DNA of 63,922 nucleotides, filler included, from Reticulomyxa filosa (taxonomy: Eukaryota > Protista > Foraminifera): NCBI GenBank assembly GCA_000512085.1. It is 14 parts of 14 records of this genome, joined end to end, with 100 filler letters (N's around TTAATTAATTAA, not from the genome) between each part and the next. Parts side by side here need not be neighbours in the genome. Positions count along the whole stretch, not along the records: positions 1 to 6,904 come from ASPP01005917.1; positions 7,005 to 10,051 come from ASPP01020111.1; positions 10,152 to 11,675 come from ASPP01004912.1; positions 11,776 to 27,190 come from ASPP01006928.1; positions 27,291 to 31,197 come from ASPP01009965.1; positions 31,298 to 38,421 come from ASPP01010774.1; positions 38,522 to 39,904 come from ASPP01044397.1; positions 40,005 to 42,684 come from ASPP01044364.1; 6 more parts are not named here. The stretch is one strand, 5' to 3'. Positions within the stretch are counted from its first letter, which is position 1; each line of letters begins with the position of its first letter. Both the position numbers and the translations under genes were made by a program. The notes under the pieces are model-generated. The model made no database searches. It worked only from the letters and a program-made list of their open reading frames with translations, and was not told the origin of the DNA. Shown piece by piece: positions 189-62,600 of the stretch.

Positions 189-2533
189 TTGGTGGCAACA
201 ACTGCAAACCCAACACGCAAGCCTACAAAACGCCCCACGATGAGACCAACCAGCAAACCTACACTTACTCCAACGGCCACTCCGACAGTTCCGGGCCAAG
301 GGTATCCACAGTTTTATCAAGGATGGGGAACCTCATTTGAGTGGGAAACGGGGTATGACAGTCAATCTTGTTATGCCAACGGCAATTCCTTATTTGTTTT
401 TGGAGGCAAAAATTCCGCACAAGGTAAAGTTTTTTATAAAAAAAAAAAAAAAAAGTGTATCTGGCCTTTTTTTTTTTTTTTTTTTGCCCCCTTTCATTGT
501 TGTTGTTGTCCTTCCTCTCTCTCTTATGAGGTTGAATATAAATACGCTGCCATATAAGCCTTATGTTTGCCACAACATAACACCACATGGACCAACAGAG
601 ACAGTGCAGACGTTTTCCACGTTTGATGCCAGTTTCAATCAAGTGTCATATCAAATGCTGCAGTACAATTCCTTGTTGTCACTGCAGTCGATGACGCCAT
701 TCTATTGTCCCAACGGCTGTTCGGGAGGGTACAAAAACCGTATCTACTTAGTAAATCCGTACACCGATGACGGTACCACCACTTCCCGACTGTTCGAATG
801 TACAATTGTTTCCCGGAACAAGACTGCCTTGTGCAAAGACTTGTGCGATCCATACATTGGCATCTTGCCCTACTGCAGCAGTTTGTTGCTCTGGGATGCT
901 TGTGTTACCACCCAAGATCAATATCTGTACATTGTTGGCGGTCGCGATAGTGTGTCCCGTCGTAACACTGTTACCGTGTTTGATATGGCAAAACGTGACT
1001 GGGCTAGTGTCCCTTCGGGAACACCTGCAGCGGCAAGATATCCGACCTTGTATGGGACCCTCCCCACATCTGTTATCAATTCTGCTTGTGCCACTTGGGA
1101 TTTCAATATTTACGTGTTTGGTATGAACATCAAAACTTTTTTTTTCCCCCCCCCCCCTCCACTTTTTTTTTCTGCAAATGAACGTTTTTTTTTTTTGTAT
1201 TGCGTCAGGTGGTCAAACCAGCAATAATGTAGCAACCAACACAATCCAAAAATGCCAGCGAAATGGAGGTGATTGCGTTACTCAAAATGCAGTACTGAAT
1301 ATTGGCCGCTACTATGCCTCTGCAGAAAATATCGGAAGTTCAATAGTGGTGCTCTGTGGTGCCCACGATGCGCAAACCGTGACGGACGTGGTAGAATTGT
1401 ACGATATTGCGTCCGACCTGACCACAGTTGATTACAATGGAGAAAGCAGCGGATTGATCATTCCGAGCGCTCGACGCTCGTGTTGTGTGAAGAGATGGGA
1501 CAGCCAAAGCACTTTGGTCATGACCGGGGGCGTGACATTTGAAGGCTCTTATCCCATGAGCATTTCTTCACTCTCTACTGCTCCGTACGGCATTCAAGAA
1601 AATATGGCCTCAGGCAAGCCTTTGGCGCAGTGTGACAGTATCGTTTTGCAATCAAGCAATCCCAGCTTTTTTGGTGGATACTTTTATTATGCCGACATCA
1701 AGGGCTACCGTGTTTGGGTGTCCAATCAATATGATTCAGTCATTTACTACCAACCCGATAATTACGATTTCACCTGGATTGGTAACTTGTCTTCTCAAAC
1801 TTGGTCTTATTATCCGAACACTGGCTTCAGCAGTGATTACTGGATCGTTTTGGCGACGAAAACAACACCACAACAATCGGTGTATTTCAACTTTATATGC
1901 TTGGATAGTCAAACATACAGTAAGAGCTCTGGTGATGGAAATACCATATTAGGCGTTTCACGACCCATCTTCATTGCAATTGTGGTTGTTGTTGTGGTAG
2001 CATTCGTGATTGCAGGAATCATGCTTATATATTTCCTCAAGAAAAATAAAACTCAACGCAAAGAAATCGTAATTCAAAGTTCTACGTATGGAACGCTGAA
2101 AAAATTAAAATCTGGCTCTACCACAACCACCAGATCGGAGGAACGAACATCGACAACCAGTGATGTACACAAAACAACAAGTTTCAAAGGAATTGCGGAA
2201 ACAAGATCGTTTGACAGGAACACAACACAAGAGGAAGAAGAAGAACAACAACAACTGACTGAAAAGGAAGCTGAGCTTGCTGAACGAGGGGGAGTTTATG
2301 TAAAAGGATATCGTGCAACCGTTGTAAAAATGCATTCCGACAATGTCGAAGAGTCGTTGAGTAGTGTTAATTCCAACGAAGTGCACTACACTGACCACAG
2401 AGTATTTACAAAAGCGGGAGGCGATGTTGAACCACTTGGCAACGACACAGTGGTGAATGCAGTCACTGGAGAAATAGAACGAATAAAACCACGCAGAACC
2501 CAACCTGCCAATGCTACCACTTATCGGGAATAA
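189..2533 (+). CDS. Kelch-repeat (beta-propeller) single-pass membrane protein with Pro/Thr-rich stalk; 5' incomplete; introns ~424-598 and 1121-1208
   Basis: (T/P)xxPT repeats (TRKPTKRPTMRPTSKPT); kelch-like GG motifs LFVFGGKN, LYIVGGRD, IYVF|GGQ, LVMTGG; TM segment IFIAIVVVVVVAFVIAGIMLIYFL followed by KKNK; GT-AG introns restore the frame. Confidence 0.7.
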
Positions 2534-3302
2534 AAACATTCAATCTTTTTTTTTTCTTAAGCTTTTTTTTTATTTTACTTTTTTATTCTGCTTTTTTTTA
2601 ATATTTTTTAATTTATTTTATCATATGTATATGTATTGAATTGTTTTTGGACAAAAACATGCTTTCTTTCCTTTTTCTTGTTCGCGTTTCTCCAATTTTA
2701 ATTTACTGTGATTAACTTGTCTCTGACACAGGTAGGATTTTTTTTTTGTCAGTGGTTCATATTCTTTTAATAATTTTTTTGAATTTTTGTTTTATTTGGT
2801 GGATGTTTGTGTTTGTTCCTAATGGAAATAAAAATGTGAGAAATTGGAGATTTTATCAATTGGGTGTCCGTCTTTTGGCGATGTGTGGTTTTTGTTTAAT
2901 TTTTGTCTCAATTAAAAATTGACTCGGCCTTACGGGTTACACTTTCTCTGTTCGGTGAAATGTATTCAGTATTAGTACATGTAGAACTGGATGATCGCTC
3001 AACAAAATCGAATTTTTGAAAGATGTGTAACAGTTTGCGATGTTTAAAACATGTGAATGATTAGACATAATTCGGGTTGTTTTTTTATAATTCAAAAATC
3101 ATTATTTCATTAATAAAACAATATGAAACTACTCAATCTTGTGTGTTGAGAAAAAGTGAAAACAAAAGTGTTGCAAATACAGAGCTCAGGGTGGTTCACT
3201 GTAGAACATTATCAATATTGATAAAGAGCATCACAATTTGTTAATAGCATCGGATCATGCTCAGATATTATTTCAATTCATGAACAAATTATTCATTTAA
3301 AC

Positions 3303-6300
3303 CTATGATTTGTGTTCATGATGATCTCGTGCTTCATCACTTACAGATCTCCGAACCTCCTTGAATGCCTTCTCAAAATGTCTCATTTCTAATTTGATAT
3401 CTTTGTCTTGCCCAACAACTTTTTTTAAATGCTTGTAATTATTTCCAGATTTTTTCCAATCGTGAGAAGGTCCCACGATGTGTTGTAACTCATCAATTAA
3501 AGCCAATGACGCTTCTCGCGCTAATTGGGCTAGATCCGCTCCACTAAATCCTTCACAACGTTTATCATTGACAAGATGTTCAATCAATTTTTCGTCAATC
3601 GGTAAGCCGGTGCATTGTTTTTTTAGAATGTCCAATCTTCCATTTTTATCAGGTAAAGGAATGTATATTTTCTTCCCAAACCTTCCGGGCCTCATCAACG
3701 CCTCATCAATAATATCGGCGCGGTTGGTAGCACCAATCACAAAAATATCCCCACGTGATTGAATCCCATCCATCTCCGTCAATAGCTGATTCACCACTCG
3801 TTGCGAGACATGATTACCACTGGCATCGCTGTCTCGCCTTGGTGCCAATGCATCCAATTCATCAAAAAACACCACACATGGCTGGGACGAGCGAGCTCTG
3901 TTTTTAGTTCACGTGTAACAATTTTAAAAAAATTTTACAATTGCAACAAAACAAGAATTTCTTTTTTTTTTTTCAAAAAGACCTATCGAAAACAGTTCGG
4001 ACAGCTCGTTCAGACTCGCCCACATATTTGTTCAACAACTCCGGGCCCTTGATAGAGATGAAAGAAGCTCCACTTTGGGAGGCGACAGCCTTTGCAAGAA
4101 GTGTTTTCCCGCAACCAGGAGGACCGTACAACAGCACACCAGCAGCGGAGTCGACTTTGAACATTTGATACAATTTTTTGTAGGAAATGCGATCGATGAT
4201 CTCACGTTCCAAGACCTTTCGAACTTCGTTTAAGGCTCCAATTTCGTTCCATGACACATCTGGGATCGTGGCGAATCCTTCGCGACGAGCAGAAGGCTGC
4301 ACGACTTTTAATGCGTCCAAAAAGTCACTCTCTTTAATATAGTGATCTATTAACTGTATCGCATTGAGCCGTACATTGCGATAAAACGAGTAGTCCATTT
4401 CCAGTCCCTCTTCCAAGGCCTGAAGATCTTCTATTTCATTGTTCCACTTATCATTATCATTATCATTATCATTATCATTACCATTGTTATTGTCGTCATT
4501 GTTATTGTTATTGTTATTATCGTCGTCACCATCATTATCACTGTCATTTGCATTAGCAGATCGATTGGCACTCCAATGTGCATTCACCAATTTCAATTCA
4601 CGCAATATGCGCTTGACACCAATGACCCCAGCTTCTTTTGTCAATGCTTTCAAATCGGCGCCGACAAAGCCAGAAGTTTTCTCCGCAATCAGATCAAAAT
4701 CGAAATCTTCTTCCAATTTCATGGTCTGAGTAATCACCGATAATATCTTTTTGCGTCCTTTTTTGTCGGGAATGCCCATTGCGAGCTCACGATCAAAGCG
4801 ATCACCACGACGTAAAGCGGAGTCGATGCTATCAGGACGATTGGTCGCCGCGATGAACAGCACGGCCTTTTCCATGGCGTGTCGAGCCAAATTGTCCAAG
4901 CAAGTGAGCAACTGCGCCACAATGCGCTTTTCCATGTCTTTCGACGCGTCTTCGCGTTTACTGGCTATCACATCAATTTCATCAATGAACAAAATGCAAG
5001 GTGCGTTCGCTAACGCCGTATCAAACAATGACCGAATTTTGGCTTCTGATTGGCCGGATAATGCTTGAACCAATTCTGGAGCGCTTACACTCAAAAACCC
5101 AACACCTTTTTTTTATTTATTTATTTATTTCAAATTACGTATATCATTCAAAGTAATGTCCCCCTTTTTTTAAAAAAAAAAAAAAAAAACACTTGATAAA
5201 TAAAAGATACAATACCAGCTTCTCCAGCAAGGGCATTTGCCAAAAGTGTCTTTCCGCTTCCTGGGGGTCCATGTAAGAGTACAGATCGCGGCGGAATCGC
5301 TCCTAGTGTACTCCAGATATCGCAGCAACACAACGACAGCAATAGGTTTTTGATTGTCTCGCTCATATGTTCGATCCCCCCAACGTCACTCAAAGTCTCA
5401 TCGGGATAACTCAGCTCCCATGAAATGCTGTTGTTGTTATTGCCTTCATCGGCCGTCATCGTTGCCATTCCTATCGTCATAGTCGTCGCAGGCTGTTCCA
5501 TCTCTCCCTTTTTGCTTCGCATCTGAGCGCGTGCGTTCTTGTGTCCGTATTTTGACATAATTGCTTTCTTCGTAATTTCTTCCATTGTTTTTTCCAAATG
5601 TTTCGCTTTTATTCTCTCTTTTCCGCTTCCTTTTCCACTTGCATTTGTATTTGTATTTCTGTTGGCATTGGCATTTCCGAATAAAAACCTTGCTTATGCC
5701 GATTCTCATTGCTTTTACTGTAATTTATGATTTTGTATTCATTCGCTGCTGTCTTGGGAACATTCGGCTCATTTGTTTGATTCAGTTCGCTAAAGGTCCT
5801 TTTTTGTGCACGTATACTGTCATTGCCATCACTCTTCACACGAGATGAATTTTCCTCCTTTTCTCGTCCTTTCTCTTGCTTTTCTTCTTTTGCTGTCTCT
5901 TTTTCGACTTCGGTCGGTGTCACTTCCACTTTTTGCTCATTTCCTTTTTCGTTGGGTTTTGATGTCTCTTCAGGCTTTTTTGCGTCTCTTTTTTTTTGCT
6001 TGGAGCATTTACATCTATTTTTTCAAAAAAAGTGTCCGTTTTTTTTAAAAAAAGTATTGACATTTTTGAGTCTCTCCCTTTCCTTCTCTCCTATCCTCAT
6101 CTTCGTCCCCTTCCACAAACGATCAGAAAAATTAATGCGAGTATTTTTATCTTTCCACTTTACAAGATTTTATGCCTTGAATCAATGCTTCTTTATTTAC
6201 ACCTTTCCAACGGGACTGGTTTCTAAACGTCACAACACACCAAAGGTCTTTCTGTTTATATATTACGTAAATTATTTCAGACAGCAGAAAAACTTAACTA

Positions 6301-6362
6301 CGAAACTGAAGGATTTCATAAATTGCCTTGGAACGATTATCATTTCCTCCTTTTGGTTCCAT
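3303..6362 (-). CDS. NVL: Nuclear VCP-like type II AAA+ ATPase (NVL/Rix7, ribosome biogenesis); introns 5106-5215 and 3898-3982 plus ~3 less certain 5' introns; 1-nt indel near 5620
   Basis: Two AAA modules: VLLHGPPGSGKT / ILFIDEID / ATNRPDSIDSALRR and VLLYGPPGCGKT / VVFFDELD / RPGRF; NVL-typical linker VQPSARREGFATIPDVSW and SIKGPELLNKYVGESERAVR. Confidence 0.92.
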
Positions 6363-6904: not shown

Positions 6905-7004
6905 NNNNNNNNNNNNNNNNNNNNNNNNNNNNNNNNNNNNNNNNNNNNTTAATTAATTAANNNNNNNNNNNNNNNNNNNNNNNNNNNNNNNNNNNNNNNN
7001 NNNN
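6905..7004. other. Artificial contig-joining linker N44-TTAATTAATTAA-N44 (also 10052-10151, 11676-11775, 27191-27290, 31198-31297, 38422-38521, 39905-40004, 42685-42784, 44022-44121, 50773-50872, 54162-54261, 56274-56373, 62816-62915)
   Basis: Identical 100-nt spacer with stops in all six frames, present 13 times. Confidence 0.99.
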
Positions 7005-10151: not shown

Positions 10152-11675
10152 CCAGCTTCCATGCAATTGATGACTTTGTGCAAATGGTCATAGCTTGTCA
10201 TTGTAGCCGTGTCTGATGCAAATTTACTCTCAAATAGAAATACAGTATCCTCGTATGGTAATAGATTTTGATCCAACAACAATTGCCACGAGTATGGTTT
10301 ATTACATATCACCAAACAGTGCCTGCAATCCTCATCTTTGAGATTCATTTCGATACATTTCAACGACCCCCAACGCTTCATTAATTCCGATGCTTCCTTT
10401 CCTATTTCTGATTTTAATATCTCAGTTAAATGTTTTTGAAAATTTACATCTCTGCAGCCACCCAAATTTCTCATAATACCTTCCAATTCTTGCTTAGGTA
10501 ATGGGTGATGCACATAATAGCGAATTAAGGCATAGAAATCTCGTCTCCCCAACCAATTCTCTTTGCAAAGCGACATTTGGTCTTTTGACATGCTTTTGTC
10601 CAATTTGTCGAATACACGAACAAGCAATTTTATTTCATTCACTGAAAATTTTGTGCGTATAGTGCTTTCTTTCAAAATTGCTTCTGCAATATTTTCAATA
10701 TCAGATTTGAGATTGTTTGGGATTTGATGCACAATGACACGATTCATTTTAGCAGCGTCCAAAGGCCGGTTGGATAATGCGACAAGTGAAATTCCGGGAT
10801 TTTCCAAGAGATGATGCAATACTTTCAAGGGTGAATGTTTAGAACGCTCTGCCAAACCAATTTCGTCCAACAACAGCACGGGCTTAATGGTCTCATCTTC
10901 AGAATGACGTATTGCCTGCTTCCATCTTTCTTTGATTCCAAAGGGTTTGCTCTCTTGAGTACATTGAAAAGATACAACGTGAAGAGGCTTTATCTCCAAG
11001 TTGATGCCTTGCTCTTGAAGCCTTTTTTGCAACTTTTTAGTATTTGGCTCACTCAATCTATCTTTGAGAAGTTGAAATGCTAAAGTTTTTGACGTTCCAG
11101 GATCTCCAACTAAAACAACTGTAAATTCATAAGAATTACATACACCCAACAACGTGGATACACATTACATTCATATTTACATATATATGAATACTCAACT
11201 GGGAGTAGTGGTCACAATACATATAAATAACATAAACAATATCTCCTCCAATGCTTCAGTTTTTGCAATGATTTCTATATTTAGAGAATAAAATGCATCA
11301 GAAAATTTTTTCATTTCTTTTTTCAAAATGTCCAAAAAATTTTCGGTTTTCGACATTTCTTTCGTATAATTCTCTCTTTCGCTCTTGTTCAATCGAAAGT
11401 AATAGCATATTCCTAATGAAATCACCAAACATTGTTTCATACAATCGGAATTACAGTCGCTAGTAACATAGTGATTCACAAGCCAAACAAAAATTTTTAA
11501 ACATCTCTCCACGTCTCTCAAGGATACCATAGCCACATCCTGTAATTTGGTGCGCACAAAATGTTGAGATCGGAAAATTTGTTCGGCTATGAAGTGTGCC
11601 TCCGAGTCAAATGTCGCCTGTGCACATGCTTTTAACTCTTTTTTCCGATCTTTGGTCATTTCTGAAATATATTGA
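10152..11675 (-). CDS. RNF213/mysterin-like dynein-related AAA+ module (internal fragment); intron 11119-11199
   Basis: VSLRDVERC; P|IVLVGDPGTSKT (Walker A); SFQC; VLLLDEIGLAERSKHSPLKVLHHLLE (Walker B); LSNRPLDAAKMNR; GRRDFYALIR, all matching recalled RNF213 AAA motifs. Confidence 0.85.
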
Positions 11676-11775: not shown

Positions 11776-14700
11776 AAAAAAAAGAAGACGCGACAGAAAG
11801 CGAAAGCAACTTTAAAGACTATTATTACAAACAACGTTGGCCCCTCGACGAAGTGAATACGACAGAAGATCGCGCAAAGATTTGCAAAGACTATTTGACG
11901 GGTATCCAATGGGTATTAGATTATTACTACCGAGGCGTGCCTTCGTGGGGATGGTATTACCCTCATCATTACGCCCCGCTAATCAGCGACATGGCACTTA
12001 TGGATGAGCAATTCCAATGTCAGTTTTCCCTTGGAGAGCCTTATCTGCCTTTTGAACAGCTCTTGGCCGTCTTGCCTATTGCATCCTCGCACGTGCTGCC
12101 CGCACCCTTTCAAGCGCTCATGACCAATCCAGAATCGCTCATCTCCAATATGTACCCAACCGACTTCAAGATTGACATGGATTACGCGACCAGTCCTTGG
12201 GAAGGGGTTGTGTTGTTGCCTTACATTGACGAACGCAAATTGAAGGAGGCCGTGGCTACAATTGATTCTAATCTTTTAACTGTTACAAATCTTACATATA
12301 ATACATATATTTATATATACATATATGTATATATTGTATATGTATAAGTAATAAACAAGCACAACGTGAAACACAAACAAATAAAAAGGAGGAAGAAAAA
12401 GTAAGAAATAAACACGGATGCACTCACATGTATCGGTATGATCCCGAAAAAGCAAAGGCCAAGATCAAGACGAGGATAAAAGGCCCGCAATCCTTTGGTT
12501 CGATCGTTGACGTGGTGTCCATCTCTGTCTTCATCGAACCCCACATCCAAACCAATCAAGGCATCTTCTTGCCCAGGCCGTGTAGAGGCAGCGTCGATTC
12601 CATTCCGAGCTTTTCCTCAATTTCGCATTCAAAAGTGCACCGCCCAACTTCAAAAAGTGCTTATATACATTATATATATATATATGTTTGTACATAAACA
12701 AGTTTTGATATTTTGCCAAATAAAATATGAATACATACAAAACCAGATATGATGTCAAATATTTGGAACAAAATCAAAGTACGAAACGCTGGTATTAGCA
12801 GTAGAAAACAAGTTGGAAAAGTTGGATGATGACGAAAACTATAAAGAATTGGAGAAGATAGCGTGGAACTTTATGACGCAAAATGAGACGTGTTTTGTGG
12901 ATTGGCCGTATTTGCGCGAGGCGCAAGTGGTCGGGGCGGGGACACTTGGGCGTCAATTTTGGTACAACGCGCACAAAAATGCAATTGACACAAAAGAACT
13001 TTCATCGCAGCAATATGATTTGTTCCGAAACGAAGCCGCGCAGTTGCGACAGGATTATCTCAACATACATGGCCTTGACGTGGGCGTTGTCCGTGTCATC
13101 GTGTACGTGCGGCCACTGTATGCCATGTCGCGTCCTCGCTTGCGCTCCAACGCACAATCAAAAAAGCAAGTGCTCTCTTTCAAAGTTTGGCATCAGGACA
13201 AAGTCAGTGTTCCTTTGCAGATCATCGTCAATGCTCGTGACAAAAACTTAATCCTTGATAATCGATTCGAACTCAAGTATTGTTTATTTCTGTGTTGATT
13301 TATTAAGTCTTTTTTTTTTTTTTTTTTTTTACAAAGATACATTTCATATACATATATGTTAAGACCAATAAATGACGAGTCCCAGCTTCAACTGAACAAA
13401 GAAGTAATGTATATTGGAAGCTTGCAAGAGTTTTTCGGGACGATTGGCTATGTGATCAAAGAACCGACAAAAGGTCTTGTGGACATACGTGTGACCAAAC
13501 GCTTTGAGCTGGTCAACTTTGGACATAGCGTCATACAATCGCGCAAACGCAAAGCGTTGAAATACTATTCGTTCGATGAGACAGTGTCGTTGGTCGATAT
13601 CACTCCGAACACGTTATCTCGAATTTGCGGAGTGATCATCGCCAAACATAACGACGAAGAATTTGAGATAGGTTTGAGAATCAAACTCAACTCACAACAA
13701 TTGATCATTCCTGAATATGTTCGGATTGTTTCCTCTTCCTCGTTTTCTCATGGCCGTGATAGCTCTGAGCGTTATCAAGTCGAGTTTTCACAAAAGTGTG
13801 TGGATTTGCTGATCAGATATAAACAACAATTCCCTCTCATTTTTGAGTTATTAAATACTATCAAAGGATATAAGCTTTTGTCGGAACAGTTTGCAACTAC
13901 CAAAGTTTGTGCTTTTTTTTTTTTTTTTTAAGTATTTGCAAATTTGCCTTTTTTGTGCTCTCACTTTTGTTTGAAATGCTCTTACATCCTCTCTCATTTT
14001 AAAAAACGGACAAAAAGACATTGGAAGATGTTTCAGAAAAAGATAACGAGGAATTGGGCATGGACGAAGAGAAAAGTGGGTCTGGCCTCTATTCTCAAGA
14101 TAATGGAGGAGCTGACGAACAAAATGAAGATTCTCAAGAACAAAAACAGAAACCAAGACACAAAGAAAAAACTCATGGAAAAAACACAAAGTTAATACCG
14201 CCGTCGGGAAACCATCCCAAAAAAGAATCCAAAAAAACAAAGGCTAGAAGGGAAGACATAGAAATGGCCTCAGACTCAGATTCCGATGACTCGCTATCAA
14301 AAAATATCATACCTTATTCCACTTCACCTTCTCTCTCGTCAAACGACAAAGGAAGAGAAAATAGAAAGCGACTGAGACAAATACAAAAAGCAGAAGGATT
14401 CCAATATCTCGTCAGTGTTGTCCAATGGCTAAAGCAACAAGAAATAGCTCAGTTGCCATTAATTGAAATGGACGCTGTTGTATTGGAAAAAGATACCATT
14501 TTGGCTATTCAAAAAGAAGCAGACCAATACTGTTAAATATTATATAAATATAAGTATAAACATAAATGTGTATTTACACTTGTAAGCATTAATTCACATA
14601 TATATTTATATGTGAATATAGATAAAAACAAATGCAAAATCAACCACGACGGGTAAAACTATTGAAGGTTGCGATTGAAGATGTGTATCCAGGTGATCCT

Positions 14701-14952
14701 AAAATTGCTTGGTCTCCCAGTCGTGGTAATCAAAGTTATCGTTTGGGTGATCGTGTATGTTCACTAAGAAGCGACTTTGGAATCCCTTTTGGGACTTTAG
14801 GAACTGTGGTAGGGATTCATCGAGACTTTTTGGAAGTGATTACAGATCGTGCTGTGGCTTCTGGAACAACTTTGCATAATCGTTGTAGTGATAACAGAGG
14901 GGTACTTATGCCTCTGAATACCGTTGTCAATATATCTCATATGCCTTTGTGA
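11776..14952 (+). CDS. XRN1: 5'-3' exoribonuclease XRN1, C-terminal two-thirds; introns 12282-12388, 12657-12746, 13277-13363, 13905-14017, 14532-14621
   Basis: YLTGIQWVLDYYYRGVPSWGWYYPHHYAP, PFEQLLAVLP, WEGVVLLPYIDE, LT|EEEKVRN, VDWPYLREA, and SH3-like LGDRV...PFGTLGTVVGI; contains apparent 1-nt indels and one in-frame TGA. Confidence 0.93.
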
Positions 14953-21004: not shown

Positions 21005-21789
21005 ATGGCCAACAACAACATAGGAGAGAATATAATTGATACAACTGTGGATGCCACTCTGGCAAACATGAGAAATGACGAAAGGCAAAAGCAATTGCAA
21101 CAGCTGATTGATCAAAACAAAAAAATACAAGACGCTCATACCAAATTGCAGCAACAGCAATACGCTGCTGGTGGAGATTTACCCGAAGGGGCAGAAGCTG
21201 TTACAATTGTGGAAGAAGTCGAAGTTCCAGCAGAAGGAGCCCAAGTTGAACAAAAAGAACCTGAGCCTAAACCTGAACCAGATCCGTTTATCAACCCTAA
21301 TATAATATATAACAGTTTTGAGCGGCCCACGTCGTATTATTTGCTGCGTTGGTTGTGGTGTGGCTGTTTTGAACCGAGATACAAAATTACCACAACTTAT
21401 GTTATTGGTGAGGAGTGGCATGGCTGTTGTTGTGGAGGGGACAGTGGAGAGCGTTGCTGTATTAGAGTTGAGTTTTAAGATAGTTTTTTAAAAAGAAAGC
21501 AAGAGTGAACAAGTTCGATCGAAAAAAAAAGGTAACGGATTCGATGGCTTTTGAGAACGTTGATGATGTGCAACGACGACAAACGTGTTTGTATGCGACA
21601 ATTAGTTGCTGCTGTTCTGGTTTTAGAGATATGGGTGATATTTCGTTGCTTGGAAGAGATGAGAGTAATCAAAGTGGATGGACTTTAAAACGTATCCATC
21701 ATAGCAAGAGAATATTTAACGAATTGACAAGGATTGTACAGAGCAACAGTAAACCAAGTGACAAAGACAAAGACAAAGAAAAGAAATAG
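21005..21789 (+). CDS. Cys-rich protein with bacterial PH (bPH_2)-like domain; intron 21467-21531
   Basis: RYKITTT...G...R|VTDSMAFENVDDVQRRQT...GDISLLGRDES...LKRI pattern resembles bPH_2; CCC clusters. Confidence 0.6.
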
Positions 21790-22091: not shown

Positions 22092-24662
22092 CTATTCTTC
22101 CATTTCCAATTCCAAGCCTTTTTCTTTCAAAAATGCGTCCATTTTGGGCTCTCTTCCTAAGAAATTAGTGACCAGCTCCATTCCATCTTTGCTTCCACCC
22201 CATTTTAAGACTTTGTCTCGAAACAGCAATCCAACTGTTTGGTCCAGCAATTTTCCCTTCCCAAATTTGGTTCGAAACATATCAAAGGAAATAACTTCAC
22301 TCCACAAATACCCATAGTACGTGGCATCATATCCTCCTACCAAATGTGAGAATGTCGCCAAGAAGTTTGTATTTTCCGTTGCTTTGACGCCCCATATACT
22401 TTCACTCAATCTTGCACACAGCTGTTCTGTATTTTCTTGATGGATGTCGAATTTACCACTATGAATATATTGATCCAACATCCCGAAATACAGTTGTCTC
22501 GTGTGATGCAATCCAGAGTTTATTTTCCTCGATTGTTGTATTCCCTTAATCAATTCATCAGGTATTTTCTTATTATTGTCCTTGTAATGTCCACTCATCA
22601 TGTCCAACGATTCTTTGTCCCAACACCAATTTTCAAACATTTGAGAGGGAGTTTCCACAAAATCTCTTTCCACGCTTGTGCCTTTTTTTTTTAATATAAA
22701 AAAAAAAATAATAATAACAACAACTTTCTCTTCATATCTCCATTGTACAAGAGGCGCAAGGATATGACCTTACTCACTCTGGAAGAAAAAAAAAATAGTT
22801 AAAAAATTGGGACCAGAAAATCTCGCCAGGTTTGGTTGCCCACAGAGTTGGTGCATGACATGTCCAAATTCATGGAAAAACGTCGTGACTTCGTTGTGTG
22901 AGAGCAAACATGGTTTGTTGGGAGTGGGCTTTGGGAAATTGCAAATCATAACGTTCATAGGGACCTGCGACCCGGTACGTTGTCCATCATGATCGTAAAT
23001 GGAACATCCTTGTTGTAACGTCGTCATGCACGCGTGAGAGAACTTGCCTTCTCTCGGATGCAAATCCAACATAAAATAACCTACAGTCTCTTTTTTTCCG
23101 TCGATTAGCTCAAATGCTTGCACATCTTCGTGCCACAGCTTCGACGACACTCCTTGCACCGGAACAATCTTTAAACCAAACAGTTGTTGAAAGATATCAA
23201 AGCATCCTCGAATCACAAGTTCCAATGGAAAGTACTCCCTCAATTTTTCATTATCGATTTTGCAGTCTTTTTCAACACGTTGGTTCATGTAATACCTTGC
23301 AAAAAGTCCGCAAAAAAAAAAAAAAAAATATATATATGTATATATATTTTTTTTTGGAAATTGATTAAACAAACATAACTTCATTATATACATATATAAA
23401 TATATATTGTATATATGTGTGAACTCAACTCCAAACTCACCTTATGTCGTAGGGATGTATAATACCATCAAACGTTTCTCCGCATTTTGCTTTGTCAGCT
23501 TTTTTAAGTTGCAGCAACACTTCCAAATCTCTTTGTGACAAGTCTTGAATGCGATTCCACAAGTTTTGCAAGAATTGACTGACACGTTGGGATGTTTTGG
23601 CCATTCGAATTTCGCAGATATAATCACTATGATTGGCATATCCGAGCAGCTCACTCCGCATCTGTCGCAATGCTATGACTTCCTCTATGATCCGGCTGTT
23701 CTCCACTTTGCAACGCGAGTGGAACTCCAACTCCATCTTTGCACGTGTGGACTCCACCTCGCACTTGTCCATGATCGGCATGTAGTCCGGATACTGCAGT
23801 GTCACTTTGTAGTCATCCGACTCCTTGCCGTTGTAACGTATATGTAACCAATCTTCATCCATGCCCTTCAATTGCTCGCGGGTAAACGTAAACTTTGGGT
23901 TCCACAAGCTCAGATTGTTGTTGAATATTATACTTAACTCACTAATCCGTTTGCTTAGTTCTTTCATTTTGTCGTAATCTTTTTCATTCAAACCTTATTT
24001 ATTTTATTTAAATTGTTGTTAAAAAGTTGGAGTCTCAAAATTCTTGCACTCTAACATGAATGAAAGAAAAGAAGGAAGAGAGGAGGGGAAAGATATATAC
24101 ATATATAAATATATATATGTATATATACACCAAGGCCATTTCTTCGATAGTCTCGCAATAACATATGCAATAACCTTTTCCATTCGTTGTCCATTGCGCT
24201 TTCTTCTTGCTGCTTGTAAATTTCATCGTAGTAGATTTTGTACTGATTGTATACATCCCTACGCATACTCATGTCGATGCAAAATTTCGACAGCTCTTGA
24301 TTCATTTGCACACAGGTATCGCGAATGTGCTTGTGCGGTGACACATTTTGTAATAGGGACAGCAAATGAGATTGATAGGAATATTGCTGGGAGTGACGTA
24401 TCGGTAGAAGTAGTAGGTTTTTTGCATTCAGCTCGCTTCGGGACAATGACGCAATTTTGTCGTGGTATTTTTGGATTTGCGCTTGCAATGTTTCTTTAAT
24501 TTGGCAAATGTGATCACTGCGCTCAATGTTTAGATCTGGAAGTGTGGTAGCAGTGCGAAAACTAAGGGAAAACCAATATTTATTATTGTTCCTCCTCTGC
24601 AAACATCGAGAACGTGAACCAATATCAGACAAATTACGTACAAAATGATTTCGATAAAGCAT
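22092..24662 (-). CDS. Thimet oligopeptidase/neurolysin (peptidase M3A) with possible mitochondrial presequence; introns 23994-24130, 23296-23440, 22682-22813
   Basis: LDLHPREGKFSHA, FFHEFGHVMH (HExxH), FSG|TSVERDFVETPSQMFENWCW, GGYDATYYGYLWSEV, FLGREP; Arg/Ser-rich N-terminus. Confidence 0.94.
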
Positions 24663-25570: not shown

Positions 25571-27136
25571 TCAAGTAGTGTCGAAATCATTATCACTTTT
25601 GTTGGAAGTGTTATTACATTTATCTGTTGTGTTGTTATCCATCAACAACGAATGTCTATTTTCGTCTGTGTGATTTTTTTTGTTTAACCATTTTAAGGGT
25701 TTGTTAACAGTGCTAATCTTGGTTAAAAGGTTATGTCCAATTCCACTGTTTTCATCACTTGATTTTTCATACAATTCATGATCATTCATATCCGAAAACC
25801 GTTGATAATCAGTTTCTATATACGTTTACGTATACCATAATGGTGTGTTTTGAAACGATTTACAAAAGACACTCCATAAGAAAAAAAAAAAGAGTTGATA
25901 TGTGAAACAAACTTTCTTGGGTTTTGAAATCCTCATCAGCATTGGAGGAATGTGAGTTATAGTGATCACTGACTTGATCTTTTTCTTCTCTTTGTTGAAG
26001 CAATGGATCTTGGTGTAACTGACGACGATGAACGATGTGATCTCCACCATCTTTTTGGTCGTGTTCGTGTTTTTCCTCCGATTCGGTAGAATGGAGTGAG
26101 TGAGTATTTCGCGATTCATAGTTAGAGTGACGATGATCATTATCATTTGGAAAGGATTGTTGGAGATTGCTCTCTTCAGCGTCGACATCAACAACTCCAA
26201 TATCGGCTCCAATTTCCGCCAAGTTCAATACATGGTCGACATCTAGTAGATCACTGTCATTATGCTCTTGCATTTGGACCATCGAACGTCTTTCATTTCG
26301 ACGCGATCGACGACGTTCCATTGCACCATAACGAGTGGGAGACCCACAATGAACCACTGCTAATACTATTCCTATCCAATACCCAACAGTAACAAAGCTC
26401 ACATATTTGTAATACATATATGTATATATATAAATATATACACATATATGTATTACAAATATGTGAGGTTTAAGAACAAAAAAAAAAATAAATAAAGACA
26501 AAACAAAACCCAAAAGCATCGAGGCATTGATGGCCAACATGCCGGTATGCAAATTGTTACGTGACTTGACGGTCATGACACGCGTGTCTTGTTTGGTGTA
26601 GTACTCGTTGTCATTACTGATGATGCTTTCGAATACAAACGAGCTCCAATTCAACACGCACGCGCAGAGCAGAGTAATGCTGCAGGCAATGAGTTTGGTT
26701 GTCCATTTGCGCTTTTCCACTTCTCTGTCATTCCATCGATCAAACCAAGGGTGTGTTGAGCCAATGCAACCCATTGATATTATTAATAATATCACCACTG
26801 CTATTATAAACACTATCGATAATTGTCGAGCCGTATTTGCTGACGGAGCTAATTTTTTAAAATTTTTTTTTAGCGTTTTGTGCAAATTAGAAGAGGAAAA
26901 AAAAGGGGGGGGGAGAGGGGAGGGGGACCTCCCAACAACAATTACAACTACAAAAAAACGTAACATTTGTTTTGAAAACTCTGAAAATGACACGAGTAAA
27001 ACGTTTGATTCACACTATTGTTTATGATGACGTCATTGGTGAGAGTGTTGTTATTGAATTGATCACTCGAGATGTAATACGACGTGTTTGTAAAGTTTGA
27101 GGTGCAATATTTGATATGCCACAAATTCAAGTGCAT
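25571..27136 (-). CDS. Multi-pass membrane protein (claudin/PMP22-like topology), 5' incomplete, ~3 introns
   Basis: Loop with LW..YC and N-glycosylation sequons followed by three hydrophobic helices and a long acidic/His-rich tail; GT-AG joins restore the frame. Confidence 0.5.
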
Positions 27137-36322: not shown

Positions 36323-37353
36323 ATGTCAGCTGAAAACAATTTGAAGATAGGAGTTAAAAGAGATTTAACACAAGCACTTTCAACCGACATAAGCCTCCCG
36401 CCCGAAGTCTGTAGCAAGCCCAGTGATGACTGGACAGAAGAGGACATGGACCGTACAATAGAACAAATCGAAGAACTAGAGAAAACTCTGGATAATCCCG
36501 TGCCATCCCAGGCACTGACACCCACACCATCAGTACCAGAAGCAGTGCCAGCTCAATCATCAACGCAAACATCCACACCAGCATTACTATCAACAGACAA
36601 AAAGTCAGTGGAACTCTGCATAGAATGTTGAGTTAGTATTTTTGAGAAAAATATATTTAAAAAGTATGTAGGTACACATAGATATGCGTAAATGCAAAAA
36701 TGACACAAAAAGGCAACGAATCGGGTGTGTTGGACATGAAATGCAAGCAACATTACAAAGTAAACGTCTGTATGCAATGTCGTTGGAAGCCAAAATATCG
36801 AAGTATTACAAAGACGATGTGCAAGACCGAATATTTGCTAACTGACAATGACTTGTCGACATTGGGATACATTGAAAAAAAGCTTTCGATTGAAAGTGGA
36901 AAATATGGAACCAAACAACAAGGAAGACAAGCACAGACCGAGCCACACAAAGGTTTGCAATCGTTACATACTACACACGAAGCAACAATGTCGAATAGAC
37001 AAAGGACAATGAAATTGTATTTGGAGTGTCAAGTTCAGCCCATTGCAATCCAAAAATGGGGAAGTTTGGAACAGATTGCTTTGGAAAAGAAAAAGCGTGA
37101 AACTGACAAAATTCAAAGACATATCGATCAACTTCAAAAAAACAAACACACCAATAAAAAATGGTGTTCCATCGCCGATATTGTCCCTTTGGATGAAAGC
37201 CAATTACTACCTGCTAAGTCCAGCATACCATCCTCTGCCAAATGCAAGACTAATTCTCACGACTTCGAACCAAAGACTTTTGACTCCCAACTTCAACAAT
37301 GGAGTCAAACTTGTCGTGCTTGTGGTTTTGTTGAGTCTTGGGAAGATATTTGA
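36323..37353 (+). CDS. XPA: Nucleotide excision repair protein XPA/Rad14; intron 36627-36712
   Basis: C4 zinc finger CIE|C...VCMQC, ITKTMCKTEYLLTDNDL, MKLYLECQV, KWGSLE, C-terminal HDFEP...TCRACG...WEDI. Confidence 0.9.
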
Positions 37354-38029: not shown

Positions 38030-38421
38030 ATGTTAACAGTATCTGCTGATTCTGTTGATCCCTTGGAAGTGCTCCGAGAGGATTTGAAAGTTGTGTGCAA
38101 GAAAAGATTTATCTCTTACATAAAGCAAAAATCCGGACAAAACAGAAACCAAAAAAACAAAGTTTAAAAAATTTGGCAATGGACACTGCTTTAAAAAAAT
38201 AAAATAAAAATCAAAAACACTGAACAGGATGAAGGTGTAGAGGTTCAATTGGATGCAGTAAGCTCCTTGCAAACAATAGCACTCGCTTTAGGCCCTGAAC
38301 GAACTGCAAAAGAATTGTACAAAGCATTAGAACAATACTGTTTTCCAGTTGAAGTTCAAGCTTCGGTGTCCCCAGATGCGTACTCAAACACCGAGGCATT
38401 GGCAGCCAAAGAAGAAGTGCT
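38030..38421 (+). CDS. PP2A scaffold A subunit-like HEAT protein, N-terminus only; intron 38090-38227
   Basis: PLEVLREDLK|DEGVEVQLDAVSSLQTIALALGPERTAKEL matches the first HEAT repeat of PP2A-A (IALALGVERT). Confidence 0.8.
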
Positions 38422-42684: not shown

Positions 42685-42784
42685 NNNNNNNNNNNNNNNN
42701 NNNNNNNNNNNNNNNNNNNNNNNNNNNNTTAATTAATTAANNNNNNNNNNNNNNNNNNNNNNNNNNNNNNNNNNNNNNNNNNNN

Positions 42785-47751: not shown

Positions 47752-50348
47752 TTAAAATCCAGATCCTTCTTCGGAAAGCAGTTCGTCGTAATTGTCCTCT
47801 TGGACATCATCACCATCCATTCGTTTGGAGCGTTGGCGTCGTGCCCATTTTGGTAATCCAGTCAACACGGCAGCGCATTTTTTGTATAGAACCTGATTCA
47901 AAACTTTTTTCCAGTCCAAGACATCCCCTTCCAATCGTCGGAATCTGACCACATAAATGGTTTCGTGTGGTGCGTTGGTTATTTCTTCATCGGTGTCGCT
48001 GTCTTCGTTTGCAGTAGGGCCATTTTGGAATTCACGAGAACGGAAAACTTGAACCACAAAGCGAATTAGTGATTCATCTTGTAAATGCGGGTTTTGCAAT
48101 TTCACCGAGCACATCAACTTTAATTTTTTATTGTCAATGTTATAATGGAAACACAATTTCAATCAACAAGTTTGTAATTTACACATTACTCAACAGTATT
48201 GTCCTCAAAATTGAAGACTGTGTGTCCTGAGACGTCGTGAACAACTGTGTTCACTGCGTTGAAAACATCTTTCCATTTGGCTGTGGTGTGAGTGTCCCAT
48301 ATGCCTTCCGTTTCTCCTGATGGATAAAGTGGGACTTCAGCTTGGTGATCATCCAATCGCTCAATGGATCGCGTCACACTGTTTTGCAAATCGCTCAATT
48401 TTTTGGCATCTTTTCTTCTTTTTTGTTCCATTTGACGATAACGGGATTTCAAGGCTTTCACCAAGTCTTTCCCTCTTTTTTTTTCGTTTAAAGTTTTGTT
48501 TTTGTCCCCAATGTTCGGATTGTATTAAATAAACCCCCTTTTCCTCCCCCCTTCTGCCCCTCGGTTTCAAAAAAGAAAAAACTCTTTTTTAACTCTAAAT
48601 ATTTTCCATTAAACCATTTATGGCGTTTAATGTCGGCAATGGAAATTCGATATTTCGGATTGTACATCAACATTCGTTGCAACAAGTCTTTGACGTCCTC
48701 GTCGTTGCTGATTGGGCAGCCAGCGTGTAATTCCCAGAAGGTGCGGTAATCCCCTTTTGCCAATGGACGGAACCAGCGGTCAGTTTTGTGAGCTTGTTCA
48801 AACGGGGGATCTGTTATCCAAATGTTTTACATTGTGTTTAGTTTTGCTGGCTCAATCATCATAATTGACAAACCCTGAAAACTTGTTTTTTTAAAAAAAA
48901 AGACATTACTAAACATCCTGTTAACAGGATGAATAAAACAACCCCCGCAGAAAATATGTCGGCCAAAAAGTCGTATGGGCGGCTCAGCAACAATTCCGGT
49001 GCTTGATAGCCTTTTGTCCCGACGTAAGTTGTTTTCATTGTCGTACTAGTCGCATCTGATTGGAATACTTTGGACAAGCCAAAATCAGTGATCTATAAAA
49101 TTTCAAACCAATTTTAATGTTTCTCATTTCTACTATTGTAAGCAAAAAAAAAAACAAAAACAAAAACTTTCAAATTGAATTTTGAATCCAGCAACAAATT
49201 TTGGGTTTCAAGTCACGATGGGCAACACCCGATTTATGGCAAGCTTCCAAGCCTGTCTCACAAAAAACAAACGAATACATTAATACACTTACTCACTTTT
49301 TTTTTTTTGCTAAAATATAACAATAAAAAAAAAATCTGGATACTATTCATCACACTAATGGAAAAGAGGTGTGGAGGACATTAAACGTATAAAATTTGCA
49401 AAGAAAAAACAAAAAAAAAGAGAAACATCATTTTCACCTGCAATGAACTGGCGGAAATATGTTCGAGCGACTATACTTTCGAGCGCTGACGTGTAATACA
49501 AAATGTCGAACAGCTCCCCACCTGGGGCGTACTCCAACACAAGCAAAATGCAATCCAATTTCTCATGATTTTTCGTGGGATATTTCGCGTTCAAATTGTA
49601 CGCGTACAATTTCATCACGTTCTGGTGACGAATTTGCTTTAATGATTCGATTTCCGTCACCACTTGTTTCGTCTACAATTTTTTTTTTTAACAGATTGGG
49701 GTTGCGTTTTTTTGTACAGTTTATACGTAAGTATAATTTTGGGGGGACATAAAAAAAAGAGAATAATCAAACGTATACTTAGTCTTTTCCTCGTCGTTTT
49801 GTCCACACCAAAAGAAAACGAGAAAAGAAAAAGAGTGGAGAAACAATTAAGTCAAGGCCTAAAAAAAAAAAAGGATAGAAACTAGCATATACCTGTTCTT
49901 CGGCCCAGGAATTGTCAGCCTTGGCCATAAACTTCAACGCGACACATTTGGAGGTTTTTTTGTCATATCCTTTTTTCACCCTATCATTGTAATGTCACAA
50001 ACAAGCAGCTTTGTTTCAGGGGTTAAAATTTTGCAGTTGTCTGAAAATATTTGTTTTTTTTTTGTATCCTCGGAAATGCTGTGTTTTTCTTTTTTTTTCT
50101 TACCAGGAATACCCCCCTTTTCCCAGGGTTTCGCCAATGTACCATCGGCCAATCGAACGAGGTTTGCTTTTGGTGGAAGCAGCCGCTTTTTCTTTTTCAG
50201 CTGCATCTCCGCTTGCTTCCTTCTCCCCTTGAAGATCAGTTCCTTCTTGTTCGACTTCTTCCTGTTGTTCGTTCAGTTCGTTTTGATCCGTTTGTTCGGT
50301 TTGGTCAATTTGTTCGTTTTCTTCTATTTCTGTCAAGTTTTGCTCCAT
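47752..50348 (-). CDS. CAMK-group (SNF1/MARK-related) kinase with C-terminal KA1-like domain; 7 introns; 1-nt indel at ~49204
   Basis: GETLGKGGYSW|VK, VALK, LEYAPGGELFD, HRDLKP, ITDFGLSK, TYVGTKGYQAPE, DIFSAGVVLF; KA1-like YVVRFRRLEGDVLDWKKV. Confidence 0.9.
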
Positions 50349-57632: not shown

Positions 57633-59159
57633 TTATAAACTGTTCAATCCTTGCAGAAACAACTCCATATTGTCATTAGTTACGTCTTGGCTCAAATTCT
57701 GAAAACTAACGTCATTTTTGTCGATTTCAATATCTGGATTTGTAACGGCAACAGCAGGATCATCACTACTTTTGTTGTTGAAAAACTCTACAACGGCACG
57801 AATTGTGCTCTCTTTACCTATTTAATTTTTGTTGCGTTTCAAATGTAAGTGACCTTTGAGTTCAATAATATGTGTTGTCTACAAAACATGGTGTTTCCAT
57901 TAGTCTTTCTGTTGAAGCATTAACAATTTCATTAATAGAGCCAAAATTATCCAACAATAAAGAGCTGTGAACACATTCATCATGTCTTTGGATTTTTTGT
58001 TTTTTCCACAAAAAAAAATTACCTTTCAATATCCTCTTCATTGGACTCTCTATTAGTTGATTTATTTTGACAAATGAAACGATCAAATCACACCCATCAA
58101 CGCTCTTTTTTTGTTTTAAATAAAAAGGAAAAGAGATATTGATTTTTGATTGGTTGAACAAATCTCAATTAGGAATGATTCTGTTTTTTGCTGATTGGGT
58201 GCAAAAAAAAAAAAAAAAAAATTTGCAAACAGACACACCTCATTCCAGGAATAGAATTTAAAATCTTATGTGCGACATCTTCCGACTCAAACTTTTCTTC
58301 AACGCTCTACAGTTCAGCAATCACATATTCACAGACCAAAGAACAAGGCCGGCAAAGAAAGATAAACAAACAAACAAAAAGCAACATTTATTTGTTTCCT
58401 AAACGGCTTGTATGGACTCTTGTTGTTTTGTCTTAAAGGCTGGGGCAAAGCACATGTTCATTTGACTCAAAATGTGGACGATCTGCTCGGCATTCCACAC
58501 AAAAAAGTAATTTGGATATTTCTGTGCACCGCCGCTGTTACCGGTTGAAATATCAAAAAAGAGAGAGATATTTACGACAACAAACATGCCAAAAAACATT
58601 AAATGGAGACATAAAATCTTTCACTACATTTTATCTTTTTAGTGCTTGACATAACTTTACATTTAAATATGTCATAACAAAGCGTACTTGGATGTCGTCG
58701 CTGATGTAAAAGAACGCATAGAGGTAGTGATGCATTGCCTTGCTCTTTTCCAATCGTAATAACTTGTGCATTATAGCAAAAAGTAAAAACAACAGCAAAT
58801 TTTGGCAATATTTTGCTCGTTTGTTTTCCGCCCTAATTTTTTTTTTCGTATTACCTCTTGATCTCTTTTAGATTGAACCAGCATGTCTTTGCCATTAATC
58901 AGACAAAATGCAACCTGTTGTAGAACAGCACGCACAAAAGATAACGAAAAATTTTCTTCAACAGCGTAAACCAAACTGATTTGGAGCCTGCCAAAATCAA
59001 ATCTGCTGGTGAACTGTTCTTTGCAAGATTGCGCAGCTGGAACACTTTTGGAGAAAGCTTGCTTGCAAATTCACGGGTTAGATCTCTCTCATTAGAGACA
59101 ATCAAAATTCGAGGAGTAGTTATATTCGATGACGGTCTGGAAGTCACGCGGGCTGTCAT
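57633..59159 (-). CDS. ERCC1-family non-catalytic protein, PTD/SPO16-like (meiotic ZMM crossover factor); 6 introns
   Basis: Spliced product LIVSN..FASKLSPKVFQL..PADLILAGSKS|VAFCLI..|LLRLEKSKAMHHYLYAFF..FVMTYL..PNYFFVWNAE..LNSIPGMR|HD..FGSINEIVNAS..AVVEFF; ends in an (HhH)2 motif. Confidence 0.7.
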
Positions 59160-59608: not shown

Positions 59609-62600
59609 TTATTGGTCGTTTAACCTCCGTTTCTTTAGATTGGGAGTAATATCATCAGTTAAATCTGTTTCGGGCTGTTTATATACAAATAGATGGAATT
59701 TTTATTTTTACTTTCTTTCAAACGTTAAATAGTATTTACACGTTTGAGTCTTAACTTTTTTTCTTTTTGCAGGAATTGGTGCTCTATAACCAGTGAAACC
59801 AGTTTTGTAGACATCACTCAATTGATGATTGCACATATCCAAAGCGGCATCTGGCACTCTAATACTGTCACGCCGGATGGTTTCTACCCAGCGCTCCCTC
59901 TCAGAATCAGGTAGATTTAATGCCCAGGTCTCATTTTCTTGCAGTTGCAAATTGGTATTTTGAGACGTCGAAACAGGTTTATTTTGTAATTCTTTCAAGT
60001 GATAACATCGTCCAAGTTCAAAAAAGAATTTGACATCTTCATAGACAGTTGAAAGTGGCAAAAAAAAAGTATGATGACGACTCAAAAGTCGTTGAATTAT
60101 TGTACTTAGCATATTGATACACTGTTCTGGCTGGATTTGACAGCTCAATGTTAACTCGTAGAACCATTGTGAAATTACATGAGACCCCCAGTTAAGCATT
60201 TTTTGTTCAAATTCTATTTCGTTTTTGCAATCCAAGATAACTGCTATCAAGTGTTGACAATGAATATTGAAGTAATTTTGGGTCCATGTTTGGATTCGAT
60301 CTCGATTTTCACTTAAACATTCTGAGCTGATTAATTCCCCCAATGCTGACGCCAAATCTGCAGCCAGAGTATCCCTTCCGACAGGAGTGTCATTTTCCAA
60401 CACAGAACGTTTTAAAAATTCTTGTAGCGGAGCATACAATCGCTTGACAAATGACCTTCGGGAGGAAAAGAGAAAAAACGAAAAACAACAAATAGAAATT
60501 TCCTTCCAAAAAAAACAAACAAACAAAAAAATTGCTCATACCAATCATTGTTGGCTTTGGCATGACCAATATCACTGGAATTGATATGACTGATCAAAAA
60601 TTGCGTGACTTGATTAATCAGGCTTTGTCTGTCGATTTCCTCTGCTGTCGGACGATGTTGGGAAGAGCGATTTGTAGCGCTAGTATTTCTGTTGCTGAAC
60701 AAGTTCATTAAATTCAACCAAGGATCAAATTCTATTTCCTCGTGAGTGCTATCTTGGCTATCTTGCGAAATTGGTGGAATAAGATCGAACAAATTGGTCA
60801 AAGGATGTACCGCACTTCTCATATTATTATTATCATTGTTATTATTATTATTATTATTATTATTAGCATTACGATTTGTAATTCCTGTACTTTGCGAGAT
60901 TGAAGGAGCTATTGAAGAAAATCCTTGCCGTCTTTCTCCTCTTTCAACTTGTTTTTCGTCGATACTCGTTGATTGCATCTGCTCATTATTCCTGTTTTGG
61001 TTATTTGTATTGTTATTGGTCCTGCCATCATTTGAAGCAGAATTTGTGATGGATGAGATGCCACGGGAACGCGTTGCATGCACAGAATCATTGTCTGCGA
61101 TAGCGTTTGTGGCATTCGTCTGACTTCTTCTCTCGCCGATGGTATATGTTCTTCCCTCTTGAAGTGCTTGAAGAAGTTGTGAAGGTAAGAGCGCATTTAG
61201 GCGACCAATTGGCCTTGTTTGTGATTGCACAATCACCCCATGGGTCACTGGCATTGATACTCTCATTGTCTGACGTGCGTATTGTGGTCTCAGTAAGACC
61301 TCGCTTTCTTCGTTTCGACCTGATCGCAAAAATGAGTTGTTGTTGTCATGTGCAAATATGATATCGTCTGTGTACTCTCCATTGCTACTAAACAAGACAT
61401 GTTTAAGCCACCAAAAGAAAACGAAAACAAAACAAAGCAAAATAAAACGGAACAAACAACAAAGTAAACAAACATAGCTTACCAAAACAAAAACAAACAA
61501 AAAAAAGGGGGCTCTAAAATAATCTTAATTAACTATTTAAGCATAAGGTTTGCAACAAACGACCAATACTCGCAAGCACAGTACCAACTTGGACCAATAA
61601 GGTTCCTACGGCCCCTGTACCCATATATCGCAATATGTTTATATAATAATACAAATAAAATATTTTACTTTATATGTATATAATATGAAGCACACGAAAT
61701 AAATGTGTTGTGTCAACCCCAAACTGGTTCTTCTTTCTAAATCTGCCACTTCTTGGGGTTGATGTTGTGTGGTTTCGCTATTGCGTTGAGACTGATTCCA
61801 CTGTTGTAATCCCGCCATCACTGCATTGGCGTAGTGCAAAAAGCCAGGTAAATTAGAAAGCAATGGGACATCTTGTTTGCTTTCCAATTCATTGTAATTT
61901 GTCGTTGTGGAGTGTGTATCGCTCCTTTGAACGGATTTCAAATCAAAACTCTGTAGTTTGTGCATCGCGTCGATATTCTCCACATTTTCTGTAGATCCAT
62001 GTTCATGTTTTTCCAAAAATTGTGTCATCTTTGTATACACATCGTGCAGCTTTGATACTTGTTCTTGAAGGGCTATTCTCCTTCTTTCATTTCTTTGTTG
62101 AAGCTGTGTCGATTGAGTGCTGTTGTTTTGAGTTTGATTACCCGCACTTATTTGAAAGCGACCATTTGCATTGGCATTGGCATTGGCATTGCTATTGCTA
62201 TTGCTATTGCTATTGTTGTTGTTGTTGTTGTTGGCAGTGGCATCAGTACTTGTACTTCTGTTATTGTTAGTATTAATATTAACATTAGTATCTGCACTTG
62301 CACTTGTATTGTGTGGACGTTGAGAAGCACTGTTACTATTATTATTATTAGCAGTAATGTTGTCATTGATTGAGATATTGGAGTTGGAATCAAGGAAGGA
62401 GCGCAGAATGGAGTGTAGGTTGGGGTTTGCGTTCCCTGGGGAAGCTTCCATGACACGGCCGATGACTTGGAATTGGACGTCGGGACGAGGAGGCTGTCTC
62501 CGTGATGGATGCTGAGTACGTGTGGATGCGTCGGTGTTGGAGTCTCTGCGTTGGTCTTTGTAAGATAAATGATCCCCAAAGTGGCGCTGAATTCGATCAA

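Follow-up and report, generated by a model that had tools for sequence, protein, structure and literature searches.

How the 5' splice site is recognized in the foraminifer Reticulomyxa filosa is the question raised by a 63,922-nucleotide stretch of its genome (the window). The donor consensus of major introns is GTRAGT, with a purine at +3 and a G at +5, yet in this window only 14 of 44 curated donors carry +5G and 29 of 44 carry a T at +3 instead. A first-pass annotation had claimed that donors with the G displaced to +6 are about as common as those with +5G (∼16 against 14 of ∼47 introns). As far as can be judged from sequence, this observation is confirmed: 13 donors have +6G without +5G, 11 of them as GT at +6/+7, against 14 with +5G, and the remaining 17 have neither G. 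When ambiguous introns are included (n=53), the balance is 15 donors with +5G against 19 shifted ones.

All statistics on DNA given here refer to this one window, in which junctions were placed from sequence. It consists of 14 contig pieces joined by 13 spacers of 100 bases, N-TTAATTAATTAA-N (the first at 6905-7004), and gene neighbourhood across spacers is therefore meaningless. Introns were predicted by a hidden Markov model (HMM) gene finder that required GT at the donor and scored nothing else there, and were then curated; an earlier single-strand version was dropped because of over-prediction. The raw output comprised 77 internal introns, and 53 introns were kept (44 usable and 9 ambiguous, which were set aside). 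Introns of doubtful genes (15.6-18.3, 46.5-47.2, 52.6-55.5 kb and others) are outside the curated counts and inside the raw test. Two introns of a protein kinase gene, at 49437 and 49167, had been misplaced by the HMM and were re-set by eye. The 44 introns come from ∼15 genes; 19 were curated by homology or a conserved motif and 25 by reading frame. All curated introns have GT...AG termini and leave an open frame after removal, as expected of major (U2-type) introns. Minor (U12-type) introns are characterized by a GTATCCTT or ATATCCTT donor and by minor small nuclear RNAs (snRNAs). This identity was rejected, with no U12-type donor among the 53 introns. For R. filosa, Table S7 of PMC11347168, in its accessible part, reports 0 minor snRNAs. 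An Rfam scan of the window gave 0 matches, including none to an snRNA.

The 17 motifs named in the first-pass annotation were all found where it had placed them. Out of its 13 named shifted donors, 11 are within the curated set; those at 424 and 26964 proved ambiguous, having an alternative or equally phased donor. Two shifted donors were newly found. The shifted donors, two canonical ones and the two uncounted ones are as follows.

5209..5215, minus strand: shifted donor GTATTGT of an NVL/Rix7-like AAA ATPase gene (intron 5215-5106); the exons match consecutive human NVL residues with no gap.
11193..11199, minus strand: shifted donor GTTGAGT of an RNF213-like gene (intron 11199-11119); the residue count across the junction is exact.
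13277..13283, plus strand: shifted donor GTATTGT of XRN1 (intron 13277-13363); ranked first among 19 frame-keeping junctions and aligning to two homologues with no gap.
48908..48914, minus strand: shifted donor GTTTAGT of the kinase gene (intron 48914-48811, between LLTG and YPPF); best of 6 junctions by 19 bits.
48188..48194, minus strand: shifted donor GTTGAGT of the kinase gene (intron 48194-48118); best of 6 junctions by 16 bits.
38090..38096, plus strand: shifted donor GTTGTGT of a PP2A A-subunit-like gene (intron 38090-38227); the downstream exon starts at human residue 22-23, and the upstream exon presumably matches as well.
36627..36633, plus strand: shifted donor GTTGAGT of an XPA-like gene (intron 36627-36712), from the HMM; Pfam XPA_C lies in the next exon, and the junction completes what we take to be the CxxC zinc motif.
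21467..21473, plus strand: shifted donor GTTGAGT (intron 21467-21531); HMM and reading frame only.
32566..32572, plus strand: shifted donor GTTTTGT (intron 32566-32656) of a gene that we take to be PI4K-like; HMM and reading frame.
57881..57887, minus strand: shifted donor GTTTTGT (intron 57887-57818) of a gene presumably encoding an HhH domain; reading frame by eye, missed by the HMM.
58649..58655, minus strand: newly found shifted donor GTTATGT (intron 58655-58535); HMM and reading frame.
59749..59755, minus strand: +6G donor GTTAAGA (intron 59755-59675); HMM and reading frame.
58398..58404, minus strand: newly found +6G donor GTTTAGG (intron 58404-58307); HMM and reading frame.
23435..23440, minus strand: canonical +5G donor GTGAGT, 1 of the 14, in an M3 peptidase gene; best of 6 junctions by 32 bits.
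50098..50103, minus strand: canonical +5G donor GTAAGA of the kinase gene, which also contains two shifted donors; first among 6 junctions, by 22 bits.
424..430, plus strand: ambiguous donor GTAAAGT, uncounted; the HMM chose the alternative at 429.
26958..26964, minus strand: ambiguous donor GTTACGT, uncounted; a same-phase alternative lies at 26991.

To judge the excess against chance, we used decoy GTs from the interiors of the same introns, a control chosen because of their low-complexity background (TTTTG and TGTATG repeats). Among sites without +5G, GT stood at +6/+7 in 11/30 donors and 12/216 decoys (p=7e-6), and it occurred at ∼5% at +8..+15; the predicted enrichment over intron background and over the positions further downstream was thus recovered within the window. 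The difference persisted when +3T was required on both sides (9/21 donors against 7/88 decoys, p=3.5e-4) and in a permutation taking the maximum over positions (p=3e-4). Background GT at +6/+7 was 6.3-6.4%, whether taken over the whole window or over AT-rich windows. By comparison, +5G was barely above the intronic decoys (14/44 against 53/269, p=0.057; p=0.003 against AT-rich windows), and GT at +6/+7 is the stronger donor signal of the two in this window. The claim of a mainstream class also holds within the window: the shifted class makes up 30% of the donors (95% interval 17-45%), its GT form about a quarter, and it includes homology-fixed junctions and a deficit of G at -1, both described below. 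Intron length did not differ between donor classes (p=0.09). A possible second GT peak at +11/+12 (10/77 raw and 5/44 curated introns) was not significant once the number of positions was counted.

These results could reflect a small sample or faulty annotation, with misplaced junctions or an unrepresentative window and little genome-wide excess. The set is small and more than half of it was placed by reading frame only, the hypothesis was drawn from the same data on which it was tested, and the contigs carry assembly frameshifts. However, the signal is also present in the uncurated donor-blind HMM output (13/58 sites without +5G, p=3e-4) and in the 19 best introns (7/15, p=3e-5), survives the permutation over positions and is spread across 8 separate contig pieces, and we regard this explanation as distinctly unlikely.

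Junction placement was examined most closely in the kinase and M3 peptidase genes, for which all frame-keeping GT/GC-AG pairs were enumerated and scored with profiles built from 116 homologues of the kinase and 119 of the peptidase. The model junction ranked first for five kinase and three peptidase introns, including the shifted donors GTTTAGT (48914) and GTTGAGT (48194); for a sixth kinase intron the scores did not discriminate, and its donor was among those re-set by eye. The homology enumerations also admitted GC donors, but none of these ranked first at a counted homology-fixed junction. In total, gap-free homology in both flanking exons fixes five shifted donors (5215, 11199, 13277, 48914 and 48194); in the RNF213-like gene, residue 155 of exon 1 corresponds to RNF213 2395 and residue 2 of exon 2 to 2401. 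Homology did not fix the junction of the XRN1 intron at 13905, and PDB searches with the upstream exon of the PP2A A-subunit-like gene and with the PI4K-like exon gave no match. For 5 of the 11 donors with GT at +6/+7, no acceptor within 45 nucleotides would keep the frame if the inner GT were used.

A sequencing artefact, in which homopolymer over-calls would make GTTGAGT from GTGAGT and the like, appears barely credible. Apparent one-base frameshifts do occur at A-runs in XRN1 and possibly elsewhere, but these are best fitted by missing rather than extra bases. Moreover, the artefact would require an extra base at about half of the G-bearing donors (13/27), whereas 20,805 bases of chosen open exons, with 2530 single-T, 769 TT and 237 TTT runs, contain no frameshift.

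The class also differs on the exon side of the junction. G at -1 is found in only 1/13 shifted donors compared with 16/31 others (p=0.007), and none of the 13 has AG at -2/-1, while -1G is not reduced in +5G donors (8/14) relative to donors with neither G (8/17). The +3T, which the first-pass annotation had rightly placed in more than half of all donors, extends across all classes (p=0.003 against decoys), being present in 11/13 shifted, 8/14 +5G and 10/17 no-G donors; the commonest +5G donor is GTTTGT (6/14).

Neutral one-base slippage from +5G, in weak donors of a homopolymer-rich genome and with the shifted G unused, would produce donors of this shape. A doubled base within +2..+6 is present in 13/13 shifted donors, and the introns are full of runs and microsatellites. 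Yet doubled bases are equally common in no-G donors (15/17), decoy GTs show no excess of a GT five bases on (5.6-6.4%), GT at +7 is not raised (1/44), and the -1G deficit is not predicted. We therefore consider slippage very unlikely.

The reading that we favour, at somewhat less than even confidence, is that the shifted donors (GT-T-D-W-G-T) are read by ordinary U1 pairing, either one position downstream or with one bulged base. We infer the following steps from the donor sequences. A shifted donor would correspond to a normal one lengthened by a single base ahead of the G. In the +1 register, A7 of U1 would lie opposite +3T, C4 opposite +6G and A3 opposite +7T, and -1G would no longer have a Watson-Crick partner. 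Such pairing would fit both the +3T in 11/13 and the -1G in 1/13 of the shifted donors. The ACAGA box of U6 would probably read +5..+7 with one looped-out base: the shifted donors lack the +5G that pairs with C42 of U6 as well as the AG at -2/-1 recognized by U5, which suggests that U6 shifts too. As both registers occur within one gene, a single major spliceosome with a flexible register is likelier than two separate machines.

The U1 5' end used for pairing scores was the standard motif. With it, the 44 donors outscored 278 decoys weakly in the canonical register (p=0.09), and clearly in the shifted (p=5e-5) and the bulged register (p=2e-6). A shifted donor was the best local GT in 1/13 cases when scored canonically and in 7/13 when a shift was allowed. 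Predicted U1 pairing beats the canonical one in 12/13 shifted donors with a shift and in 13/13 with a bulge, a partly circular comparison that assumes a standard U1. RNAduplex energies for the donors were uninformative.

Several observations weigh against ordinary U1 pairing in a shifted register, or against the prominence of the class. Donors with neither +5G nor +6G are the largest class (17/44), indicating that donors are weak overall. The register scores are circular in part because the class was defined by +6G. The -1G deficit weakens to p=0.046 with the ambiguous introns and to p=0.057 when restricted to the 19 best. Of the five homology checks, three (NVL, RNF213-like and XRN1) were picked because the donor was shifted, and in the kinase and M3 peptidase, the two genes checked throughout, the shifted share is 2/10. 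Decodable donors of relatives, considered below, are mostly +5G (∼12 against 1-2 certain shifted). Finally, +3T is also common in the +5G and no-G donors, which a changed U1 explains more simply.

The class could accordingly be real and be read by variant snRNAs. These might be a U1 paralog that has gained one base in its 5' arm or carries a substitution of the Entamoeba kind, a U6 in which ACAGA lies further from the catalytic core, or both; we hold this explanation to be possible but doubtful. Besides the +3T in all classes and the frequency of GTTTGT, it would account for the +5G donors keeping -1G like the no-G donors, as if +6 were preferred, and there is a precedent in the GUUUGU donors of Entamoeba with their compensating U1, as described in the accessible text of bioRxiv 10.1101/2022.06.08.495308. 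On the other hand, compensatory change is rare according to the portions of the literature available to us, with none in U1 of 69 Saccharomycotina and ACAGA invariant in 240 species, and a single substituted U1 would not suit GTTGAGT (4 cases) and GTTTGT equally. A related proposal, which we put forward as possible though unlikely, is that the U6 ACAGA ruler (and U1) of foraminifera prefers a donor one base longer, so that +6G/+7U would be the strong U6-type signal, +5G a weaker residual, and the register would be kept per intron across species.

Where a database protein runs on into an intron, its sequence reflects the first bases of that intron; we used such proteins to decode the donors of relatives. 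For the phase 1 kinase intron between LxG and Y, 21 records were decodable (P0182 was left out as undecodable). In 17 of them a stop at +3..+5 ends the protein directly behind the split codon, which fixes +3T and leaves +6 undecided; many of these are near-identical and thus not independent, and their foraminifer origin is likely because they cluster with Bolivina and Rosalina proteins. Read-through peptides fix GT at +6/+7 in an R. filosa paralog (P0123, CLV) and in a relative (P0253, CYV), while P0300 (CML) has +5G and P0316 is undecided. For other introns, +5G is decoded from ∼12 records (in four of them the phase is assumed), another six would allow a shifted donor and are undecidable, and P0347 is shifted if intronic. 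From these peptides, +3T and the shifted donor extend beyond this locus, and their share in other foraminifera may be lower. The kinase family (47752-50348, minus strand) has many close relatives, with 64-88% identity in one exon, and its intron positions are common to paralogs and relatives; it lends itself to donor comparisons among foraminifera. A metagenome scan for the intron-bearing kinase pattern yielded 2 contigs, both with an intronless bacterial-type kinase.

Human atypical 5' splice sites with shifted or bulged U1 pairing were reportedly described by Roca and Krainer in 2009 and by Roca in 2012. Shifted, bulged and asymmetric-loop registers were proven with suppressor U1 and assigned to 1.5% of 201,541 human donors by Tan et al. 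(2016, PMC4856993, in its accessible text). The first-pass annotation was hence right that such pairing is rare in human, but not in restricting it to the GUUAAGU type, as bulges and loops occur too. Like these human donors, the R. filosa ones belong to GT-AG introns and differ from the consensus as if a single base had been added between +2 and +5. In contrast, they reach 25-30% in the window against 1.5%, usually lack -1G pairing, and have a register deduced from sequence. The available text of PMC4856993 also warns against assuming that a U1 register applies to U6 as well. The distance between the U6-paired +5G and the cleavage site is treated as nearly fixed, and our literature search found one human exception, the one-base non-canonical U6 register of the STAT3 D2 donor (PMC11162779, accessible part). 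Both cases share a second GT one base off +5/+6; however, the STAT3 shift is upstream (+4/+5), at one site and with a downstream helper element, whereas that of R. filosa is downstream and in many genes.

Entamoeba shares the +3T and the common GTTTGT with R. filosa, but keeps +5G, has one uniform register and is intron-poor, while R. filosa has two registers and many weak donors. The visible part of Table S4 of PMC11347168 gives 6244 major against 29850 major-like introns for R. filosa and a similarly low ratio for E. histolytica (419:1923); this likeness may also reflect a missing polypyrimidine tract, and the low ratio of R. filosa could stem from weakness of that tract or from poor annotation as well. 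U5-type and U6-type donors show a trade-off between exon-end and intronic pairing, as far as stated in the accessible parts of Parker et al. (PMC10581693) and PMC11732430. The negative association of exon-end G with intronic G is found here as well, and in R. filosa it follows +6G, not +5G.

Among the papers found by our literature search, none dealt with the donor consensus or the snRNAs of foraminifera, and none described the shifted pattern, either for foraminifera or as a mainstream class in other organisms; the search did not cover the R. filosa genome paper (Glockner 2014) or the foraminifer actin-intron papers, which may show a logo. In the accessible parts of PMC6783311, PMC13746701, PMC10245619, PMC11732430 and PMC9311317, the only mention of foraminifer donors is of 'canonical splice sites' in Globobulimina NirK; PMC10245619 presents a spliceosome inventory including R. 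filosa. If the shifted reading is true, a lineage in which at least a quarter of the donors have a longer spacing would be a natural test, across thousands of introns, of the way in which U1, U5 and U6 define the cleavage position.

The acceptors of the 44 introns are A-rich and have no polypyrimidine tract (-4A in 30/44, -5A in 23/44; -3 is A17/C13/T13/G1), with a pyrimidine fraction of 0.44 at -15..-5 compared with 0.53 in intron interiors. These features point to a change in recognition by U2AF. In the same introns, no branch-point motif was established.

Database models are wrong at several introns of the M3 peptidase (22092-24662, minus strand), kinase (47752-50348, minus strand) and XRN1 (11776-14952, plus strand) genes. 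One M3 peptidase exon is identical (100%) to R. filosa RFI_09135, a model that translates across GTGAGT (23440); the model of the kinase breaks off within GTTGAGT (48194), and the XRN1 model omits coding sequence. At several of these introns the database models thus end or continue into intron sequence, and gene prediction in foraminifera may require a dedicated donor model. Frame breaks without a GT-AG explanation lie at 12657-12780 and 14532-14640 (plus strand) and at ∼5690 and ∼59130 (minus strand); for those in XRN1, the homologue spacing fits bases missing in A-runs, likely assembly errors. The RNF213-like gene is a fragment of an AAA protein in a rhizarian (10152-11675, minus strand; E ∼1e-8 to human RNF213). 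A broken retrotransposon fragment occupies 42741-43998 (plus strand); stops interrupt its RNase H-like and integrase zinc-binding domains.

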